From assembly GCA_013343275.1 (NCBI GenBank), contig CP046106.1, positions 320,001 through 384,000 on the forward strand: a stretch of 64,000 nt of DNA, read 5' to 3'. Of this stretch, positions 22,124 to 30,479 are shown one piece after another. Every line of letters starts with the position of its first letter. The first letter of the stretch is position 1. The position numbers and the translations under genes were made by a program. The notes under the pieces were generated by a model. That model was given only the letters and a program-made list of their open reading frames with translations. It was not told the origin of the DNA and ran no database searches. The DNA comes from Candidatus Nanohaloarchaea archaeon (GTDB lineage: Archaea > Nanohalarchaeota > Nanosalinia > Nanosalinales > Nanosalinaceae).

Positions 22124-22489
22124 ATGGAGGAAGTTACTGAGTCGCTCCTAGATGATGTAGTCCGGGCCAAGGACTTCAATGATCGGGGTTTTCAGATGTT
22201 TACGCAGAACTTTTATCTGTGTAAGGCCTTTCTACGTTATTTTTCTGTTAAGAGAGGTACCTCGTTTAACTCGTCGAAGGTGTCGAAGAAGTTCCCTCTC
22301 AGTGTGACCGTTGCCGGTACATGTCTCAGCGTTCTGGAGGACCTGGAAGTTGTTGAGAGCCGTACATCCTCCAGCTCCGCCAGTCGATACATGCCCGGTT
22401 CTGTTGATCTAGAGAAACTAGAGAAAATTGAAGAGGTACTGAAGGAGAACCGGGAGATAGATGAGTTTACCGGTAAAGAGAACTCTTGA
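22124..22489 (+). CDS. Hypothetical protein, possible winged helix
   Basis: SKVSKKFPLSVTVAGTCLSVLEDLEVVE resembles HTH plus wing. Confidence 0.65.
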   Translation: MEEVTESLLDDVVRAKDFNDRGFQMFTQNFYLCKAFLRYFSVKRGTSFNSSKVSKKFPLSVTVAGTCLSVLEDLEVVESRTSSSSASRYMPGSVDLEKLEKIEEVLKENREIDEFTGKENS

Positions 22490-23891
22490 AGTTTTCAAAT
22501 ACCTCTTCCCTCAGCCTCCGAGCCTTATCTGAGTCGAGATCTTCTGCTACCGCATCTTTCTGGAATGCAGAGGTTCCTGCTATATCAAGTGTCAGAGATG
22601 AGAGATTCCATCTCCTCTGCAACAGTGTCTGACTCTCAATCAGATTCTGAATCCTGTAGTACGGAACTATCATAGTTTGACGGTTCCAGAACCCGCTCAT
22701 AGTGAAGAAATGTTCTGCACCTCTACCATATCCTACATTAACCCATTTGTAATGCGCTGCGATTGCGGACAAAGGATAGAGTGCCAGAAGAGGCAGGTAA
22801 TTGAATCCCGCCATGTAGTCTGCCGCCATGCCTAGAGCGAGCACTGCGGTCGATACAATTGCATAGCGGCCAAAGTACCTCCTGCGAGCTCTATCCGGGA
22901 TACTTGAGATATTCAGGTCATCAAACTCCTCCACTTTATGTGCAAACTCTATCACTCTCTCACGTCGGCCCATAGGGATTGCGGACTCCGGGCCTTGCTC
23001 CATCGATTGTTCTGCCGAGTAACCTGCAGTCTCAATCTTCAGAGTCGAGTACCCTATCATTCTCTTCAGCGGATTTTCCTCTATCGTCAGTTTCTGCACC
23101 TTCTCCAGAGGTATGCTTCCTTCGGAGCGGTTGAAAAGCCCTCTTTCATACTCTAGGGAGTTGTCGGCCTGGTAGAGCTTGAAATCGAAGTACTTGAAGA
23201 ACTGTGTTGCGGCAGATCCAAGCCATGTAACTATCGCTCCAGTTACAAGTATAAGGCCTCCTGCTAAAGCAGTTGCCAGGCCTAGTCCTTCTATCTGATG
23301 CCCTATAAATCCTCCCATAATTCCAAGTACTGCGAAGAGTCCGGCAATAGCTCGGCCTTGTATAGAGGTGAGGGATAGTAGCCCTAGCTCGTTTCTGTCG
23401 AGTTCGAAAAGTAGCTCTCTACTATCTTCTTCCTCTGTTTCTTCCTGTTCTTCTCCTTTTTTCAGTTTTCTTACCTTCTGCTGTATGTTGCGAGCTTCCT
23501 CCAGATCTACGAACTTGAATGATGCCTCTGTGGTTCCTCCTCCGGCTGTCTCCAGGTTCACCTCTGCGATACCTAGCATTCGATGTACTATGTTCCGGTT
23601 TATATCGACGTTCTGTATTCTGCGGAGAGGTATTTCTCTCTGGTTCTTTCTGATAACCCCATGCTTGATTTTAACACCTTCTTTCTCTATGAAGTACGAG
23701 TAGTTTTTCCAGACCAGGTACTGCCAGGCCAGCGAAATACTGATAGTTGCAATAAATAGAAAACCGACGATCAGGGCTGCTACAAGATTAAAACTCTGGA
23801 TAGATGATGCTCCGGAAAATACGAAGATAGCTAGCAGCGCCAGAACGTTTTGCAGAGCCTTGTAAAGTATTGATTCTTTCGCAAGCTTCAT
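22467..23891 (-). CDS. YdbT-like membrane protein with bacterial PH (bPH_2) domains
   Basis: IPLRRIQNVDI, ETAG repeats, VPYYRIQ. Confidence 0.9.
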   Translation of the reverse strand: MKLAKESILYKALQNVLALLAIFVFSGASSIQSFNLVAALIVGFLFIATISISLAWQYLVWKNYSYFIEKEGVKIKHGVIRKNQREIPLRRIQNVDINRNIVHRMLGIAEVNLETAGGGTTEASFKFVDLEEARNIQQKVRKLKKGEEQEETEEEDSRELLFELDRNELGLLSLTSIQGRAIAGLFAVLGIMGGFIGHQIEGLGLATALAGGLILVTGAIVTWLGSAATQFFKYFDFKLYQADNSLEYERGLFNRSEGSIPLEKVQKLTIEENPLKRMIGYSTLKIETAGYSAEQSMEQGPESAIPMGRRERVIEFAHKVEEFDDLNISSIPDRARRRYFGRYAIVSTAVLALGMAADYMAGFNYLPLLALYPLSAIAAHYKWVNVGYGRGAEHFFTMSGFWNRQTMIVPYYRIQNLIESQTLLQRRWNLSSLTLDIAGTSAFQKDAVAEDLDSDKARRLREEVFENFKSSLYR

Positions 23892-24352
23892 ACTGCATCT
23901 CTGTCCTCTGACTCTATTGCGACATCTCGTAGCTTTCTCTGAATACTGTCTGCATCTTCAGGAACCAGCCCTGGCAGAGTTACGTCAGCACCTCTAGACC
24001 CTGCGGTGTACACTACCACTCTTGAGAGGCTGAAAAGACGATCAAGAACATTTCTCTGGGTATCTACGTGTTGGATCCTTACATACGGAACCATTGAGTA
24101 TACTTTTCTGAATACACCGTGCTCCAGGTAAAGGTGATCTTCCTTCAGTTCAAAGTTCCAGGCCCTGTATCGGTAGAAAGTATAAGTTACGGAAAAAGTT
24201 CCCAGAACCAGCAGAGATGACACAAAAGCGGCGAACCCAGTGAGACTCGTGTACTGCTGAAGCGGCCAGGTTGCCAAAGCAGACAGTACAAGAGTCGGTA
24301 TGATTGCCTGAAGCAGCCAGATGCCTAGTACCTTTTTCTCAGGTTTTCTCAC
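23888..24352 (-). CDS. YdbS-like bPH_2 membrane protein
   Basis: VPYVRIQHVDT, VYTAGSRGADV.LPGL; ATGA coupling to ydbT. Confidence 0.9.
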   Translation of the reverse strand: MRKPEKKVLGIWLLQAIIPTLVLSALATWPLQQYTSLTGFAAFVSSLLVLGTFSVTYTFYRYRAWNFELKEDHLYLEHGVFRKVYSMVPYVRIQHVDTQRNVLDRLFSLSRVVVYTAGSRGADVTLPGLVPEDADSIQRKLRDVAIESEDRDAV

Positions 24353-24426: not shown

Positions 24427-25206
24427 TCACTCATCTTTCTTGCCTGTAAGGCCTCTTTCGGAAGCCTGGGAAAGATATTGCTCTGTAAGATCCGACTTGA
24501 TCTTCTCTGATCTAGAAGACCTGTCTATCCAGTAGTACAGCGTTGCCTTAGGGCCTTCAGAATCAATCCTTACCTCCGGCACTGGTTTGTCTCTAACCTC
24601 TTCATTCTCTCCGGCTACCTCCTTGAGAAGTTCCTGTACTTCTTCCAGTTTGTCAGGTTCCAAGTCTACTGTTAGATTTCTCTTTGTTCTGTCTGCACGA
24701 GTATAATTCAAGGTAGGGTTTCCTGTAATCATTGCGTTCGGTAGGACAACTTTCTGGCTTTTATCGTTCTTTATAACAGTATCTCTGAGGTTTGTCTGCT
24801 TTACAACCCCTGATTTCTCATTTACCTCTATATAATCTCCTCTAACAAATGGCGGGTCGAAGTACATGAGCACACCAGCCATAACATTCGATATCTGATC
24901 TCTCATTCCAAAACCAACTGCAACAGTTAGGGCTGCCGCAATAGCACCTATTATAGAGGCCAGGTTACCGAAAGACCCTGCCTGAAGAGCTACTGTGAAC
25001 GATACGAACAGTCCTGTAAGGCCTGCGAAGTTAACAATGCTGTGAGAGGTCTTGGTATCGGCCTTCTTCCGCACCAGTCTTTCCGTCATCGGCATGACTG
25101 CTACACGGGTTATAACAGCGCCAGCTGCTAGAGTAATCAGAAATCGGATGATATTTACCGCTATTTCGCCACTGCCAAGTACCGTTGAAGGATCAACCTG
25201 AATCAT
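24427..25206 (-). CDS. mscS: Small-conductance mechanosensitive channel
   Basis: AVGFGMRDQISNVMAG, PFVRGDYI, LPN. Confidence 0.9.
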   Translation of the reverse strand: MIQVDPSTVLGSGEIAVNIIRFLITLAAGAVITRVAVMPMTERLVRKKADTKTSHSIVNFAGLTGLFVSFTVALQAGSFGNLASIIGAIAAALTVAVGFGMRDQISNVMAGVLMYFDPPFVRGDYIEVNEKSGVVKQTNLRDTVIKNDKSQKVVLPNAMITGNPTLNYTRADRTKRNLTVDLEPDKLEEVQELLKEVAGENEEVRDKPVPEVRIDSEGPKATLYYWIDRSSRSEKIKSDLTEQYLSQASERGLTGKKDE

Positions 25207-25247: not shown

Positions 25248-26381
25248 TCAGTTAAGAACAGATATTTCCTCTACGGCGGAGAAAAATTCCTCAATGTCCT
25301 CTCTGTCGTTGTAGAGATGTAGCGATGCCCGGAAGCTGGGCTGTAACTCTTTGCTGTTGAACCAGGAATGAACGCAGTGACGGCCTGATCGAACAGCTAT
25401 ATTCTTTGTATCCAGTATCTCTGCAACTTGGTGAGAGCCTATATTCTCAAAGGCGAAAGAGAATACTCCTTCACCTCTGTCGCCGAGTACCTGGAGGCCT
25501 TCTACTCCAGCAGCTTTCTTTCTCATTAGTTCAGAAAGCCTTTTCTCATGCTCCTGAATCCTGTCCATACCTATATTTTCCAGGTAATCAACTGCGGCAC
25601 CTAGGCCTATAATACCTGCTGCATTCGGGAGCCCGGCCTCAACACAGTGTGGAAAGCTGCGGAAGTCAGAAGTGCGGAAACTCGTATCATTTACTGCTCC
25701 TCCACCGGTTTTCACTTTTCGGAATTTATCCTGCATTTCCTCGGAGACATAGAGTACTCCTGTACCAGTAGGGCCCAGTGCCTTGTGGCCTGAGAAGGCA
25801 AGTATATCAGCCCCAGTATCTTCTACAGAGACAGAAGTATGTGATACGCTTTGAGCTGCGTCAACCACAAGGACCCCTCCGTTATCGTGTACAACTTCGG
25901 AAACTTCTTCTAGAGGGAGTTCCGAACCATCTATATTCGATCGATGATGGAGAGATACTACCGCATCATCATCGACAGCTTTCTCTAGCTTGGCTATATC
26001 AAGACCGTTCTCTGTATCCAGAGCTGTTATTTCTCTATCCTGCCAGGGTACAAGATTAGAGTTATGTTCTTTATCAGAAACAACTACTTTCCCCTGATCC
26101 AGGGCATTTGCAGTAAGATTTAACGCCTCTGTAGTTCCAGACGTAAATGCAACTTCGCTTTCCTCTGCATCTATGAAGTCAGCAACTTTCCTCCTGCTCT
26201 CGTCTATCATTTCAGTTGTCTGTCTGCTCAGCGAGTGACCGCTTCTCCCCGGACAGGCTGAGAACTCTCTGTAGTATCTATCAACAGCCTCCAGCACCTG
26301 TTCAGGTTTCAGTGACATACAGGCGCTGTCAAGATATGTTATATCCCTATTCTGAAGAAGCGGGAAATCCTCTTTATTCAT
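25248..26381 (-). CDS. sufS: Cysteine desulfurase, SufS/Csd type
   Basis: YLDSA, EHNSN.VPW, DAAQ, FSGHK, VRSGRHC; GGAGGTGA SD; start at MNKEDFP. Confidence 0.92.
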   Translation of the reverse strand: MNKEDFPLLQNRDITYLDSACMSLKPEQVLEAVDRYYREFSACPGRSGHSLSRQTTEMIDESRRKVADFIDAEESEVAFTSGTTEALNLTANALDQGKVVVSDKEHNSNLVPWQDREITALDTENGLDIAKLEKAVDDDAVVSLHHRSNIDGSELPLEEVSEVVHDNGGVLVVDAAQSVSHTSVSVEDTGADILAFSGHKALGPTGTGVLYVSEEMQDKFRKVKTGGGAVNDTSFRTSDFRSFPHCVEAGLPNAAGIIGLGAAVDYLENIGMDRIQEHEKRLSELMRKKAAGVEGLQVLGDRGEGVFSFAFENIGSHQVAEILDTKNIAVRSGRHCVHSWFNSKELQPSFRASLHLYNDREDIEEFFSAVEEISVLN

Positions 26382-26740
26382 AGAATCACCTCCAGCAACC
26401 CTGATGCTGCGCAACCGGTAGAGGAGGGGCCTTTACATGAACCGTAGAGATAAAGCAGGACAACTGCTCTCAGACTGATTATGAATGTAATCAGAAATAG
26501 CAGTACGAAGAGGCCTGCTAGCTTCTCCAGATGTCTGTCAACGAAGGATGCTGCTCTGGGGTAACGGCCGAGTAACGGTGAGAGGATCTTCGCCCTGACT
26601 TTATCGTCGAAACTGGACTGGCACTCCCCGGTTACGGTTTTATCTATCAGGCAGTTGAAAGCCTCTCTGGCGAGTTCTCGATGACTAGCTGAGAAAATTC
26701 CCAGGATAGAGAAAACTATTAGAGATGCTATACAGATCAT
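26378..26740 (-). CDS. Cys-containing membrane protein coupled to sufS
   Basis: MICIASLIVFSILGIFS..., 5 Cys, 2 TM; TGA overlaps the sufS ATG. Confidence 0.8.
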   Translation of the reverse strand: MICIASLIVFSILGIFSASHRELAREAFNCLIDKTVTGECQSSFDDKVRAKILSPLLGRYPRAASFVDRHLEKLAGLFVLLFLITFIISLRAVVLLYLYGSCKGPSSTGCAASGLLEVIL

Positions 26741-26814
26741 AGAGTGAAACATCTACATCCGGCCTTAACTCTGTACTGGTAAAATATTCAAAAGCAGGAT
26801 GTTAACAACTAGTT

Positions 26815-27210
26815 ATGAGAGGCCGTATCGAGAGAAAGGTTGAATGTAATCCTGGCATCAGCTTCTCAGAGCTGAAGGAGAGCCTCGAGATGGCTAACGG
26901 CCAGTTACAGTACCATCTCAGAAATGCAGATGTAGAGAAGATAGACAAGGGTTATGTGGGGAAAGGTAAGTGCAGCGAATGCAGTCTGAGCAGTGTCTGC
27001 AGAGATAAATGTATACTTGGAGTTCTCAGAGACAGCAGAAAAAAGAGGATCGCCGCCCTAGTTGATGCAGGTGTGAAGAAAAAAGAGATTTCCTCTCAAC
27101 TGGGTATTGATCCATCCACTCTCAGCTATCATATCAATGACTTGAGGAAGAGTAACGTGCTCGAAGGAGATTCTCTGAGGCCCGAGATCTCAGATCAAAT
27201 AGAATTTTGA
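26815..27210 (+). CDS. Tandem winged-helix regulator with CX2CX5CX3C insert
   Basis: NPGISFSEL...GQLQYHL and EISSQLGIDPSTLSYHI..L HTHs flanking CSECSLSSVCRDKC. Confidence 0.85.
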   Translation: MRGRIERKVECNPGISFSELKESLEMANGQLQYHLRNADVEKIDKGYVGKGKCSECSLSSVCRDKCILGVLRDSRKKRIAALVDAGVKKKEISSQLGIDPSTLSYHINDLRKSNVLEGDSLRPEISDQIEF

Positions 27211-27274
27211 TTCGTTTACTAACAGGTTTTATAGTCCGGTAGAAACTAGAGGTATGTATGAAAGGTGAAATTCT

Positions 27275-28039
27275 ATGAACAGATTTGAAGGAAGAACCGC
27301 TATCGTAACCGGATCATCTTCTGGAATTGGGCGTGAAATCGCCCAGAAACTGGCTGAAGAAGGTGCAGAGGTTGTAGTAGCTGATGTGCAGAGAGAACCT
27401 AACCAGGAAGGCCTTCCTACAGATGAGAAAATCAGAGAGGACGGTGGCGAAGCAGTCTTCATCGAGACAGATGTGAGCGATGAGGAATCGGTAAAAGATA
27501 CTGTATATCAGGCCGCTGAAAAGTACGGAAAGATAGATGTACTGGTTAATAACGCCGGTATCCATATTCCTGGGTCAGCCGTTGACACAGATATGGAGGA
27601 CTGGAGAAAGACTCTTGAAGTCAATCTTGACGGCCAGTATCTCTGCAGCAAACACGTTATAGACCACATGCAGCAGGAGGACATAGAAGGCGACATAGTT
27701 AACATTGCCAGTATCGCTGGCATCGTCGGTTACGGCCAGAACGCTGCCTACTGTGCCTCTAAAGGCGGTGTAGTGGAGCTTACACGTGAAATGGCTCTTG
27801 ACTATGGTGACAAAGGTATCAATATTAACTCTGTCTCTCCAGGTGTTATCAGAACGGCTATGACTGAGGAAATGCTTGAAGATGATGAGCAGAGACAGTT
27901 CATCGACTCAAATACTGTGTCCGAAAGAGTGGGAGAGCCCGAAGATATTGCGAACGCCGTGGCATTTCTGGCCTCAGACGAGAGCGATTTCATAGTTGGA
28001 GAAAACCTGGTCGTAGACGGCGGATGGACAGCACACTGA
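27275..28039 (+). CDS. SDR-family oxidoreductase (glucose 1-dehydrogenase-like)
   Basis: TGSSSGIG, NNAG, YCASK, VDGG. Confidence 0.93.
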   Translation: MNRFEGRTAIVTGSSSGIGREIAQKLAEEGAEVVVADVQREPNQEGLPTDEKIREDGGEAVFIETDVSDEESVKDTVYQAAEKYGKIDVLVNNAGIHIPGSAVDTDMEDWRKTLEVNLDGQYLCSKHVIDHMQQEDIEGDIVNIASIAGIVGYGQNAAYCASKGGVVELTREMALDYGDKGININSVSPGVIRTAMTEEMLEDDEQRQFIDSNTVSERVGEPEDIANAVAFLASDESDFIVGENLVVDGGWTAH

Positions 28040-28045
28040 TCCATC

Positions 28046-29020
28046 ATGAAAGTTGCATGGTTCGACGCTGAGGAGTGGGAGAAGGAGTACCTGCAGTACA
28101 AAACCTCTGATCTGGATATAGAGTTCTTCGAGGAATCGCTGAATGCCGATACCGTGGAGGAGGCGGAAGGTTTCGATGCAGTAGCAGTATTCGTTGACTC
28201 AACTGTAGATGAAGAAGTACTGAATTCTCTTGATGCAGACCTGGTTGCCTGCCGCTCTACAGGGTACGACCATGTAGATCTGGATGCAGCGGAGGAAAAT
28301 AGGATAACAGTCTGTAATGTGCCGCAGTACGGAGGAAGTACTGTTGCAGAGCACACATTTGGACTGATTCTCAGCCTCAGCAGGAAGATCTACGACGCAA
28401 TAAGAAAGGTAGAGGAAGGAAGTTTCGACCATGAAGGCCTTCGAGGTTTCGATTTGAACGGTAAGAAGCTTGGTGTAATCGGCACTGGTGCAATAGGCCA
28501 GAACGTTATACAGATTGCGAAAGGGTTCGGCATGGATGTAATAGCCTACGACCCGTATGGAGATGACAAACTTGAGGAAGAGCTTGGATTCATGTATGTC
28601 TCGCTGGAAGACCTTCTCTCCAAATCCGATGTTGTAACTCTTCACTGCCCTCTAACAGATTCAACCAGGCATATGCTGTCAGAAGATGAGTTCGACCTTA
28701 TGGATGGTGCTTTACTTGTGAATACTGCTAGAGGGGAGCTTGTGGACACAGAGGCCCTGATTAATGCATTGGAGAACGATAGTGTCTCAGCTGCTGGCCT
28801 TGATGTGCTTGAGGAAGAGTGTTACGTTGAGGAGGATATAGAGGTTATGGGAGACCTAGAAGACGAGTGTGATCTGGAACTGATTCTGGAGGATCACATG
28901 TTGATGGAGAGGAGTGACGTGCTTGTTACTCCTCATAACGCTTTCAATAGCGAGGAGGCAATGCATAGAATCGTTGACACTACCTTGGATAATTTAAGAA
29001 ATAGGGAGAACAGGGTTTAA
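28046..29020 (+). CDS. D-2-hydroxyacid (D-lactate-type) dehydrogenase
   Basis: RSTGYDHVD, GVIGTGAIG, NTARG, TPHNAF. Confidence 0.92.
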   Translation: MKVAWFDAEEWEKEYLQYKTSDLDIEFFEESLNADTVEEAEGFDAVAVFVDSTVDEEVLNSLDADLVACRSTGYDHVDLDAAEENRITVCNVPQYGGSTVAEHTFGLILSLSRKIYDAIRKVEEGSFDHEGLRGFDLNGKKLGVIGTGAIGQNVIQIAKGFGMDVIAYDPYGDDKLEEELGFMYVSLEDLLSKSDVVTLHCPLTDSTRHMLSEDEFDLMDGALLVNTARGELVDTEALINALENDSVSAAGLDVLEEECYVEEDIEVMGDLEDECDLELILEDHMLMERSDVLVTPHNAFNSEEAMHRIVDTTLDNLRNRENRV

Positions 29021-29562
29021 TCCCTGAACTTCCACAGAAGCAGGCCTATAGCTACGAAGGCTGTTAATGCGAACATTGGAATGGTCATGTATCCGAAGTA
29101 GTAGGTGAACTTGTCGCTGCAGGATACAGCTAGTGTCGAACAGCCGGAGGTGACCTTGCTGAATATCTGAACCGAATAATGGTAGATTGAGATTGATCCA
29201 CCGATCATAACCATTGGAAGAACGTATTCATGAACGTCTTTTTTCTCCAGCAGCAGTGCAGTTGCTGTCAGTAGCGCGAGTGGGTACATGAATATTCTCT
29301 GGAACCAGCAGAGATGGCAGGGCGTCCAGCCGAGGATATTCGACATGTAGAGGCTTCCAAATGTAGCTACCAAGGATAGAATAAAGGCTAGCTCGAGGTG
29401 CCGGGCTCTGGTTCTGTCATACAGTTTTTCCAGCCAGCTGTAGTTCCTGTAGTCGAACCCTGTAAATCTCTGCGCTATGTAAAGTAGTGTTGTACCTGCT
29501 ATAGCGGCCTGAAGTAGAAGTGTTGCTCTTGATAGTATGAAAATCAGTGATTCTGGATTCAT
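29017..29562 (-). CDS. dsbB: Disulfide bond formation protein B (BdbC-like)
   Basis: PCHLCWFQRIFMYP, second Cys pair, TM helices. Confidence 0.92.
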   Translation of the reverse strand: MNPESLIFILSRATLLLQAAIAGTTLLYIAQRFTGFDYRNYSWLEKLYDRTRARHLELAFILSLVATFGSLYMSNILGWTPCHLCWFQRIFMYPLALLTATALLLEKKDVHEYVLPMVMIGGSISIYHYSVQIFSKVTSGCSTLAVSCSDKFTYYFGYMTIPMFALTAFVAIGLLLWKFRD

Positions 29563-29651: not shown

Positions 29652-30479
29652 ATGGCAAGCTTTAATGAGGATGATTTTAGCTCTCCTGAGGAAGTCGATG
29701 AGTATATCGACGAGAACGAGGATGAGCTGAGCTCCCACGACAAAGAGGAGCTTAAAGGAATAAAGAGAGATCTTGAAACTGAAAAACAGCAGAGAATACA
29801 GAAGAGAAGAAAATGGGCCAAGTACGGAATAACAGGTGTTCTTGGTCTAGGTCTTGCAGTTCTGGTACTGGGCCCACTAGTCCAGGTTGCGCTTTCGCCT
29901 TCTACCCAGCAGAAAGGTTTTAATCTTGAGAACCAGCCTATGATGGGTAATGAAAGCGCCCCGGTTACCATTGTCGAGTTCGGTGACTACCGTTGTCCTG
30001 TCTGTAACCAGTTTGATCAGCAGGTCTTCCCGGCTGTGAAGAATAACTTTATCGATACAGGTAAGGCAAAGTTCTACTTCATCAACTATGCCTTCCTGGA
30101 TCAGTACATGCCTGGCGATACAAGCCAGACAGCAGCAGTCGCTGCAGAGTGTGTCTACCGGCAGAATGAGACAGAGTTCTGGGAGTTCCATCACGCAGTC
30201 TACGACAACCAGAAGTCAGAGAGCAAGGACTGGGCTACCGAGGACTTCATGATGCAGATAGCGAGGGAAAGTACTGAAGGCCTTGACTACGGTCAACTTG
30301 AGCAGTGTCTCTCCAACCGTGAGACTGCAGACGCAGTTAACAGCGACAGGAGAATTGGCCGAGTCAATGGAGTTTCCGGAACGCCTACGATCTTTGTGAA
30401 TGGCGAGCAGCTTTCAGGCTGGGGTTACACGACGATTGCTCAGGCTGTACAGCAGGAGCTAGCTAAGACACAGGAGTAA
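29652..30479 (+). CDS. dsbA: Membrane-anchored DsbA (BdbD-like) oxidoreductase
   Basis: EFGDYRCPVC, GVSGTPT; TM anchor. Confidence 0.92.
   Translation: MASFNEDDFSSPEEVDEYIDENEDELSSHDKEELKGIKRDLETEKQQRIQKRRKWAKYGITGVLGLGLAVLVLGPLVQVALSPSTQQKGFNLENQPMMGNESAPVTIVEFGDYRCPVCNQFDQQVFPAVKNNFIDTGKAKFYFINYAFLDQYMPGDTSQTAAVAAECVYRQNETEFWEFHHAVYDNQKSESKDWATEDFMMQIARESTEGLDYGQLEQCLSNRETADAVNSDRRIGRVNGVSGTPTIFVNGEQLSGWGYTTIAQAVQQELAKTQE

Follow-up and report, generated by a model that had tools for sequence, protein, structure and literature searches.

We analyzed a 64,000-nt stretch of the genome of a Candidatus Nanohaloarchaea archaeon (contig CP046106.1, positions 320,001 to 384,000; hereafter the window), in which a tandem winged-helix regulator (labeled reg throughout) is encoded beside a membrane protein (mem) and a cysteine-desulfurase paralogue (des). 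Comparison with related genomes suggests, with a probability that we put at roughly 0.55, that reg is a lineage-specific regulator of the redox or oxidant type, which acts through a conserved 23-nt element on mem-des and on genes of thiol and peroxide stress defence. The host genome is a single contig of 915,886 bp (96.5% complete). An earlier reading of the locus, made from the sequence alone (the sequence-only reading), had spoken of a reduced symbiont; this is a fair description, given that the named relatives of the window proteins belong to Candidatus Nanohaloarchaea. We surveyed reg, mem and the element pattern in 70 genomes of the phylum; G numbers denote genomes, L numbers relatives' loci and P numbers proteins. 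The coordinates of all features are collected in Table 1.

The regions 5' of mem from 25 genomes were aligned, and 14 of these 25 promoters contained an element with the consensus kTTkGAAnnyTnTACCAGwA. The element is an imperfect palindrome, TTkGAA-N5-TACCAG, in which the centres of the half-sites TTkGAA and CTGGTA are 11 bp apart, and, across many genera, its TACCAG/A/T ends 34–35 nt (in one case 45 nt) ahead of the start codon that is conserved in the mem family. A T-rich box follows within a few nucleotides in the aligned promoters, and the corresponding T/A-rich box of the window, 2–3 nt past the element, is the putative TATA box of the mem-des promoter. When a position weight matrix (PWM) was built without the site of the window, this site scored 22.2 bits, and the next-best match in the 915,886 bp scored 15.8 bits. 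The latter (G000:C1:285092-285114, minus strand; L128) falls between genes, 32 nt ahead of an OsmC gene.

reg was found in 29 of the 70 genomes (E ≤ 1e-8), 26 of them with the Cys type described below, and mem in 26. Both genes occurred in 18 genomes, reg only in eight, mem only in eight and neither in 36. The element was present 5' of mem or its operon in 16 of 17 genomes with a Cys-type reg, compared with one of eight without it (Fisher test, P = 1.3e-4). Two points weigh against our reading here: 13 of the 17 counted sites had also trained the PWM, and we assigned the site to reg because the two lie close together and co-occur in genomes that are related and not independent, so that the Fisher values overstate the association. 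A cleaner test used a PWM derived from eight promoters of genomes in which mem does not adjoin reg. This matrix gave seven matches of at least 18.9 bits in 6 of 24 reg loci lacking mem (77.9 kb), none of at least 15 bits in 57 kb of control loci, and, across the whole genome of the window, one match of at least 17 bits, namely the true site. The genes at promoter distance from the sites in the reg loci encode DoxX, a multicopper oxidase, an OsmC fragment, a DsbA-like protein and an HxlR protein. These comparisons appear to tie the reg family to the mem-des promoter, the target promoter that the sequence-only reading had proposed.

Further points count against our reading. Two of the six independent loci (L031 and L032) adjoin Cys-free paralogues of reg, so that another factor might be involved, and in L032 (G062, 1300-1401), where two tandem elements about 30 nt apart lie between such a paralogue and an HxlR-family gene, it is the HxlR gene that follows the site. 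Moreover, the TATA and B recognition element (BRE) positions are themselves inferred, and only 6 of the 26 mem loci are next to reg (divergent in genus g1, convergent with overlapping 3' ends in g3 and g18), while eight genomes, including the single-contig G032, carry reg without mem. Because reg so often occurs without adjoining mem-des, mem-des cannot be its sole target. In an alternative explanation, an HxlR-type protein or a variant of transcription factor B could read the element, the proximity of reg could be inherited synteny, and reg could regulate, for example, the genes for the short-chain dehydrogenase (SDR) and 2-hydroxyacid dehydrogenase. It fits this explanation that an HxlR gene follows the tandem elements of L032, that the TACCAG half lies at the BRE position and that the commonest neighbours of reg in 30 loci are 2-hydroxyacid dehydrogenase (10/30) and SDR (6/30), followed by DsbB, and not mem-des. 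However, the element is unique in its own genome, unlike the site of a general factor, it accompanies reg-family genes in six loci whose neighbours are otherwise quite different, and it is missing from the mem promoters of seven of the eight genomes lacking reg; we accordingly consider this explanation quite improbable.

The neighbourhoods of reg also include decayed arrangements. In L019 (G027), reg lies beside what is left of des (residues 269-375) and of mem (residues 5-30). L030 (G050) encodes an in-frame fusion of residues 2-93 of reg with residues 313-376 of des, which is the same protein as P0032. The syntenic block that ends in DsbB-like and DsbA-like genes is kept in L077, L036, L037 and L040.

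We next consider the genes behind the element, reg being, in our reading, its likely reader. The exact pattern had 34 matches in the 70 genomes, compared with 11 for the reversed control, whereas a spacing control with one base too many had 19 matches against 23 for its reverse. Among 30 exact-pattern loci that were examined, about half were promoter-like, with seven preceding mem and others preceding OsmC, DoxX, SDR and HxlR genes and one sufB gene; the other half or so lay in coding sequence or had no gene at promoter distance, which again speaks against our reading. Genes behind the element that could be identified by Pfam encode OsmC, DoxX, Thioredoxin_4, Cu-oxidase, HxlR and SDR proteins, and an OsmC gene that runs directly up to mem-des follows the element in G033 and G039. 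Since OsmC, DoxX, DsbA-like, multicopper-oxidase and HxlR genes follow the site, the regulon would be one of thiol and peroxide stress defence. Weaker copies of the element precede reg itself (L034), and weaker variants that end in TACTA, not TACCA, were found before the SDR/2-hydroxyacid dehydrogenase genes 3' of reg in L005, L010, L015 and L017, with scores of 14–18.5 bits, and also in L028. In the window, a TACTA-type trace at 27203-27225 reaches 5.1 bits.

The sequence-only reading had regarded another feature as the operator, namely an imperfect inverted repeat in the spacer between reg and mem. In that model, reg is a switch resembling IscR or SufR that senses an Fe-S cluster, acts on the repeat (ACATCC/GGATGT) and tunes sulfur mobilisation for Fe-S assembly. 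The repeat does exist where it had been placed, with 10 of 12 positions complementary and 24 nt between the arms, and the conserved element of the window sits between these arms. However, the same 10/12 complementarity was reached by 41 of 2000 dinucleotide shuffles of the spacer and 51 of 3000 random genomic 62-mers, so that the repeat is only marginally unusual; a perfect 6-bp stem turned up in 476 of 2000 shuffles, and the genome contains three copies of the hexamer pair where about one would be expected. The arm sequences differ in L008, the sole relative with the same divergent layout. In about the same positions, L008 instead has another, GC-rich pair (TGGCCGGG / CCGGGCCA), and with two sequences a compensatory change cannot be separated from chance. 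A search of metagenomes for closer relatives with the divergent layout returned one usable locus, L077, which lacks mem-des. We accordingly rejected the repeat as the operator, on the grounds that it is marginal against shuffled sequences, defines no regulon and has different arms in L008. In favour of the Fe-S assembly model, an exact-pattern element is found 28–31 nt before sufB in one genome (G025:C28, L124), the only link to Fe-S assembly that was seen. The remaining evidence on this model, which we judge unlikely overall, concerns the cysteines of reg and the identity of des, and is given with these below.

By its sequence, reg, which has so far been found only in Nanohaloarchaea, is a transcription factor of the archaeal HVO_0163-type family. 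Its N-terminus matches PF24266 (HTH_HVO_0163_N; residues 2-37, 53.3 bits, cut-off 31), and residues 84-117 match the ArsR-type helix-turn-helix (HTH) families HTH_20 (33.6 bits, cut-off 27), HTH_5 (31.8 bits, cut-off 22) and HTH_24. An AlphaFold2 (AF2) model based on 26 sequences had a mean predicted local distance difference test score (pLDDT) of 94 and a predicted template modelling score (pTM) of 0.82, and in it the Cys loop joins two winged helices. The first comprises helices 2-11, 17-24 and 28-37 and a hairpin at 40-49; the linker contains a short helix (52-55) that holds the first two Cys and a loop that extends as far as residue 66; and the second comprises helices 74-84, 89-96 and 100-112 plus a wing. 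Residues 51-70 were modelled with pLDDT values of 92–93. The open reading frame (ORF), Pfam and the AF2 model therefore agree with the sequence-only reading on a tandem winged-helix protein with CX2CX5CX3C between its HTHs.

No whole-chain match to the reg model was found by Foldseek in the PDB at E ≤ 1e-3, the best matches being the tandem winged helices of SelB and ScpB (TM-score of about 0.33), and a sequence search of solved structures gave nothing below E = 0.15. The C-terminal part was superposed with VIA-align: residues 48-131 on HlyU (4k2e) gave Z = 8.3 with a root-mean-square deviation of 3.1 over 78 aligned residues, and residues 40/48-131 gave Z = 7.8 on SmtB (8qkf), 7.2 on BigR (3pqj) and a value within 7.2–8.3 on CzrA, a range that VIA-align itself calls common. 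Within the HVO_0163-type family, reg aligns end to end with members of about 170 aa that have the same two domains. Unlike these proteins, it carries the Cys4 loop in place of the wing/linker (GRTHYYP...ER..ALLRRET), and their C-terminal helical tail of about 40 aa is missing. The replaced linker and the missing tail thus define reg as a distinct Cys-bearing subfamily of PF24266, whose members are 120–136 aa long and, where named, all come from Nanohaloarchaea. A literature search (open papers, main text) found no characterised member of the HVO_0163 type, and similar searches found no description of reg. In Haloferax volcanii, hypochlorite stress raises the level of HVO_0163, after which the family is named (PMC10294847). 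As a separate observation, reg diverges faster than its syntenic neighbours, with 50% identity to its counterpart in L077 compared with 77–82% for the SDR, 2-hydroxyacid dehydrogenase, DsbB and DsbA-like proteins.

The motif itself, CSECSLSSVCRDKC (CX2CX5CX3C), occupies residues 53-66 of reg. Of 160 proteins retrieved, 37 carried the Cys, and 26 of these were aligned after the removal of fragments, near-duplicates and two fused proteins, P0032 and P0037. The four Cys were invariant in 10 of 10 close homologues and in all 26 aligned sequences, at identities down to 25%, and they constitute four of only six invariant columns; on this point the sequence-only reading is borne out. The exact spacing was kept in 24 of the 26 aligned relatives and in 28 of 30 distinct reg-like proteins from relatives' loci, where the other two are Cys-free members of the family.

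Which cofactor the four cysteines hold, if any, bears on both the Fe-S assembly model and our reading. The invariance of the four Cys supports a cluster, as does the presence of CX2CX5C among the residues that ligate the [4Fe-4S] clusters of FNR, of WhiB-like proteins and of endonuclease III. A weak similarity to the SPASM model TIGR04085 in 21 of 26 members (best E = 1.4e-4) points the same way; these matches are below the cut-off (15.5 bits for the reg of the window against 27) and mostly driven by the Cys spacing, which counts against a cluster-sensing form of our reading. The same is true of the SPASM domains themselves. The sequence-only reading had argued that the CX2CX5CX3C spacing binds an auxiliary cluster there; the spacing is indeed identical, but the parallel is looser than this. 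According to PMC5715301, a full SPASM motif comprises seven Cys that bind two clusters, and the counterpart of the last Cys of CX2CX5CX3C (Cys330 in anSME) ligates Aux I while other Cys complete Aux II, so that the four motif Cys do not share one cluster. On balance, an Fe-S cluster at the Cys4 site of reg is plausible but somewhat short of an even chance, and we give the same standing to a zinc site, either a Zn-thiolate redox switch or a structural zinc; a metal-free thiol or persulfide switch seems rather doubtful.

A purely structural role is one form of the zinc alternative. In this case, the knot would be a Zn(Cys)4 staple, reg would be an ordinary or signal-blind regulator, and the redox link would come only through its targets. 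A short loop, modelled with confidence, that packs four Cys into 14 residues does fit a small metal knuckle. The Cys-free paralogues of L031 and L032 also have the element nearby, which indicates that the Cys4 knot is dispensable for recognition of the site and is thus better seen as a sensor or as a staple. However, CPxCG-type knuckles, which are common in haloarchaeal zinc fingers, are absent from the motif of reg, the knot replaces the linker exactly between the DNA-binding domains, where a switch would act, and the regulon is redox-themed. We therefore regard a mere staple as unlikely, and the knot, at the hinge between two DNA-reading domains, as the likely sensor.

The partners of reg were examined as well. 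The TGA of mem overlaps the ATG of des as ATGA at 26381-26378, after GGAGGTGA. All members of the mem family begin with M-x-C, and the start of mem is therefore most likely at 26740 and not at 26752. As for des, it scored 341 bits on the SufS model TIGR01979 (cut-off 475.1), while a second desulfurase of the genome, at C1:537.7 kb, scored 495.1 bits and is followed by a SufU-like gene. The low score together with the better second copy identifies des as a SufS paralogue. This canonical SufS-SufU pair lies about 190 kb from des and about 9 kb from sufB and sufD (527–529 kb), whereas des has neither a sulfur acceptor gene (SufE/SufU) nor SufBCD genes adjacent to it, its partner being mem. The sequence-only reading had described a divergent and translationally coupled membrane protein–sufS pair; the divergent layout and the overlap of the two genes are confirmed, but the desulfurase is a paralogue and not sufS. 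Likewise, its proposed target, a housekeeping SufS mobilising sulfur for Fe-S assembly, is not supported: the paralogue is always paired with mem, and the genes that share the site speak for oxidative or thiol stress and not for Fe-S supply. That the nearest target of reg is a cysteine desulfurase speaks for the Fe-S assembly model; the canonical SufS with SufU near sufBD (527–539 kb), with no element nearby, and the peroxide and thiol genes behind the element speak against it.

The best solved relative of des is SufS of B. subtilis (5j8q; E = 2.2e-73). The Lys that binds pyridoxal phosphate and the catalytic Cys of type II enzymes are present in des (SGHK and RSGRHC, compared with SSHK and RAGHHC in 5j8q) and invariant in 20 of 20 paralogues. 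These 20 paralogues contain two further invariant Cys, at positions 20 (DSACMS) and 42 (ACPGRS), where SufS of B. subtilis and the canonical copy of the genome have other residues. A desulfurase adjoins mem in all 25 full-length loci (23 mem–des, 2 des–mem), and it was nearer to the paralogue than to canonical SufS in 23 loci. mem matched no Pfam or NCBIfam family and neither DsbB nor VKOR, and it has two hydrophobic (predicted transmembrane) segments, not the four expected of DsbB/VKOR. Its only tie to these systems is the homology to DsbA fusions given below. Three of its Cys (Cys3, Cys30 and Cys40) do not vary within the family, and two more (Cys102 and Cys110) hardly vary. An ESM Atlas search with mem returned only unnamed clusters, its AF2 model (58 sequences; pLDDT 63, pTM 0.43) was too poor for a fold search, and a complex prediction of des with the mem loop (residues 17-78) scored 0.02, which is evidence neither way.

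A profile search among longer proteins recovered 90 proteins of about 300–320 aa with a mem-like region in their first 120 or so residues (P0172-P0261). The match of mem to the N-part of these fusions reached E = 1.7e-41, with about 45% identity over 93% of the query, and the five Cys positions of mem are conserved in it. The rest of each fusion, about 310 aa in total, is a DsbA/Thioredoxin_4 domain with a CxxC motif. The fusions come mostly from Patescibacteria and in some cases from DPANN, and in a congeneric genome (G054; L056) the gene order is dsbA-like, mem, des. As an observation in its own right, the unannotated mem-like N-domain appears to be a membrane partner module of DsbA that has not been described so far.

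These findings allow a speculation to which we attach little weight, namely that mem-des is a quinone-independent machine for extracytoplasmic disulfides with reg as its redox sensor. In such a machine, des would make an enzyme persulfide from cysteine, and the conversion of the persulfide sulfur to sulfide would take up two electrons. mem would be a two-helix membrane thiol relay, with Cys30 and Cys40 on the cytoplasmic side and Cys3, Cys102 and Cys110 outside, that passes electrons inward from DsbA-type oxidoreductases. The mem module is fused to DsbA in Patescibacteria and other DPANN archaea, organisms that are not known to synthesise quinones. If it were true, the machine would explain how DsbA is re-oxidized in the absence of DsbB or VKOR chemistry.

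We return to the reading that we favour, in which reg acts through the 23-nt element, and set out how it might work. reg would bind TTkGAA-N5-TACCAG; with the half-site centres about 11 bp apart, one winged-helix domain could sit on each. The site lies directly 5' of the TATA-like box of mem-des, at the BRE position, and its occupancy would set the expression of mem-des. It also lies over an AT-rich stretch about 30 nt before the ATG of reg, so that occupancy would feed back on reg, and autoregulation is therefore likely. The Cys4 knot would serve as the sensor: whether it holds a metal or a cluster, or how oxidised it is, would fix or free the relative orientation of the two winged helices. 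The comparisons show the domain architecture, the invariance of the Cys, the operon structure, and the conserved site with its uniqueness in the genome, its fixed position and its association with reg genes; we infer reg as the binder of the site, and likewise the direction of regulation, the signal that is sensed and the cofactor.

Several known systems resemble parts of this arrangement. IscR and SufR are also winged-helix regulators with a Cys cluster, and since reg is encoded beside a cysteine desulfurase it could work similarly; however, reg is a tandem winged helix with the Cys in its linker, its target is a SufS paralogue and not a suf or isc operon, and no Rrf2, SufR-type or other such family matched reg at E ≤ 0.1 in Pfam and NCBIfam. 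The ArsR/SmtB proteins SmtB, CzrA and the thiol and persulfide sensors HlyU and BigR can be superposed on the C-part of reg, with Z values in the range called common, and the gene context of reg is likewise related to redox or sulfur. In contrast to them, reg has an extra N-terminal winged helix and scores 23 bits on NF033788 (cut-off 55), 25 of the 26 members matching only below the cut-off. We also take the Cys of reg to lie ahead of helix 1 and not at the ArsR alpha3, alpha5 or BigR positions. The spacing CX2CX5CX3C is identical in SPASM, but reg has no radical SAM domain by Pfam, four conserved Cys instead of seven, and a score below the cut-off. With FNR and WhiB-like proteins, which sense oxygen or NO through [4Fe-4S] clusters, reg shares the CX2CX5C triad and may in a similar way be an oxidant-responsive factor; the folds of FNR (CRP-type) and WhiB (small helical Wbl) are unrelated to that of reg, and neither was matched in Pfam or NCBIfam. 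By analogy, reg may thus work like the oxidant-sensing FNR, WhiB, SoxR or Zn-thiolate regulators.

To our knowledge, almost nothing is known of how DPANN archaea regulate their genes, and should the cofactor of reg be an Fe-S cluster, we know of no described archaeal regulator of its design. The present analysis offers a candidate regulator-operator pair, with a 23-nt site and a small peroxide/thiol-defence regulon, in an organism attached to aerobic haloarchaea. A sensory Cys4 site at the hinge that joins two winged helices of a single chain would be new in its location, and loss or oxidation of a cofactor there could alter the spacing of the DNA-reading heads. In addition, two uncharacterised families that always occur together, a SufS paralogue with two extra invariant Cys and a membrane protein homologous to the N-part of the DsbA fusions of Patescibacteria, may connect the desulfuration of cysteine with thiol chemistry in the envelope.

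Table 1. Features of the window around reg, mem and des
Feature	Position	Strand	Basis or remark
des, 377 aa	25248..26381	-	ORF; Aminotran_5 340 bits
mem, 120 aa from the family-conserved M-I-C start	26378..26740	-	ORF, family alignment; alternative ATG 26752
Left arm of inverted repeat	26755..26766	unstranded	Near chance, differs in L008
T/A-rich box AGTTAAGG, putative TATA box of mem-des promoter	26763..26770	-	T-rich stretch in aligned promoters
Conserved 23-nt element GCTTTTGAATATTTTACCAGTAC, candidate operator	26773..26795	-	Promoter alignment, PWM
Right arm of inverted repeat	26791..26802	unstranded	Overlaps distal 5 nt of conserved element
reg, 131 aa: PF24266 winged helix, Cys4 loop and ArsR-like winged helix	26815..27210	+	ORF, Pfam, AF2
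Codons for C53-X2-C56-X5-C62-X3-C66 (domain 1 wing to first helix of domain 2)	26971..27012	+	
Short-chain dehydrogenase (SDR)	27275-28039	+	Pfam
D-2-hydroxyacid dehydrogenase	28046-29020	+	Pfam
DsbB-like gene	29017-29562	-	Pfam DsbB 47.6 bits
DsbA-like thioredoxin gene	29652-30479	+	Pfam Thioredoxin_4 113.3 bits
MscS-type mechanosensitive channel gene	24427-25206	-	Directly 3' of des

Beyond these features, the MscS-type channel gene next to des is a neighbour that is also kept in the sister species. Farther along on the same side, two membrane-protein ORFs of 474 and 154 aa (22467-24352, minus strand) overlap by 4 nt (23888-23891).

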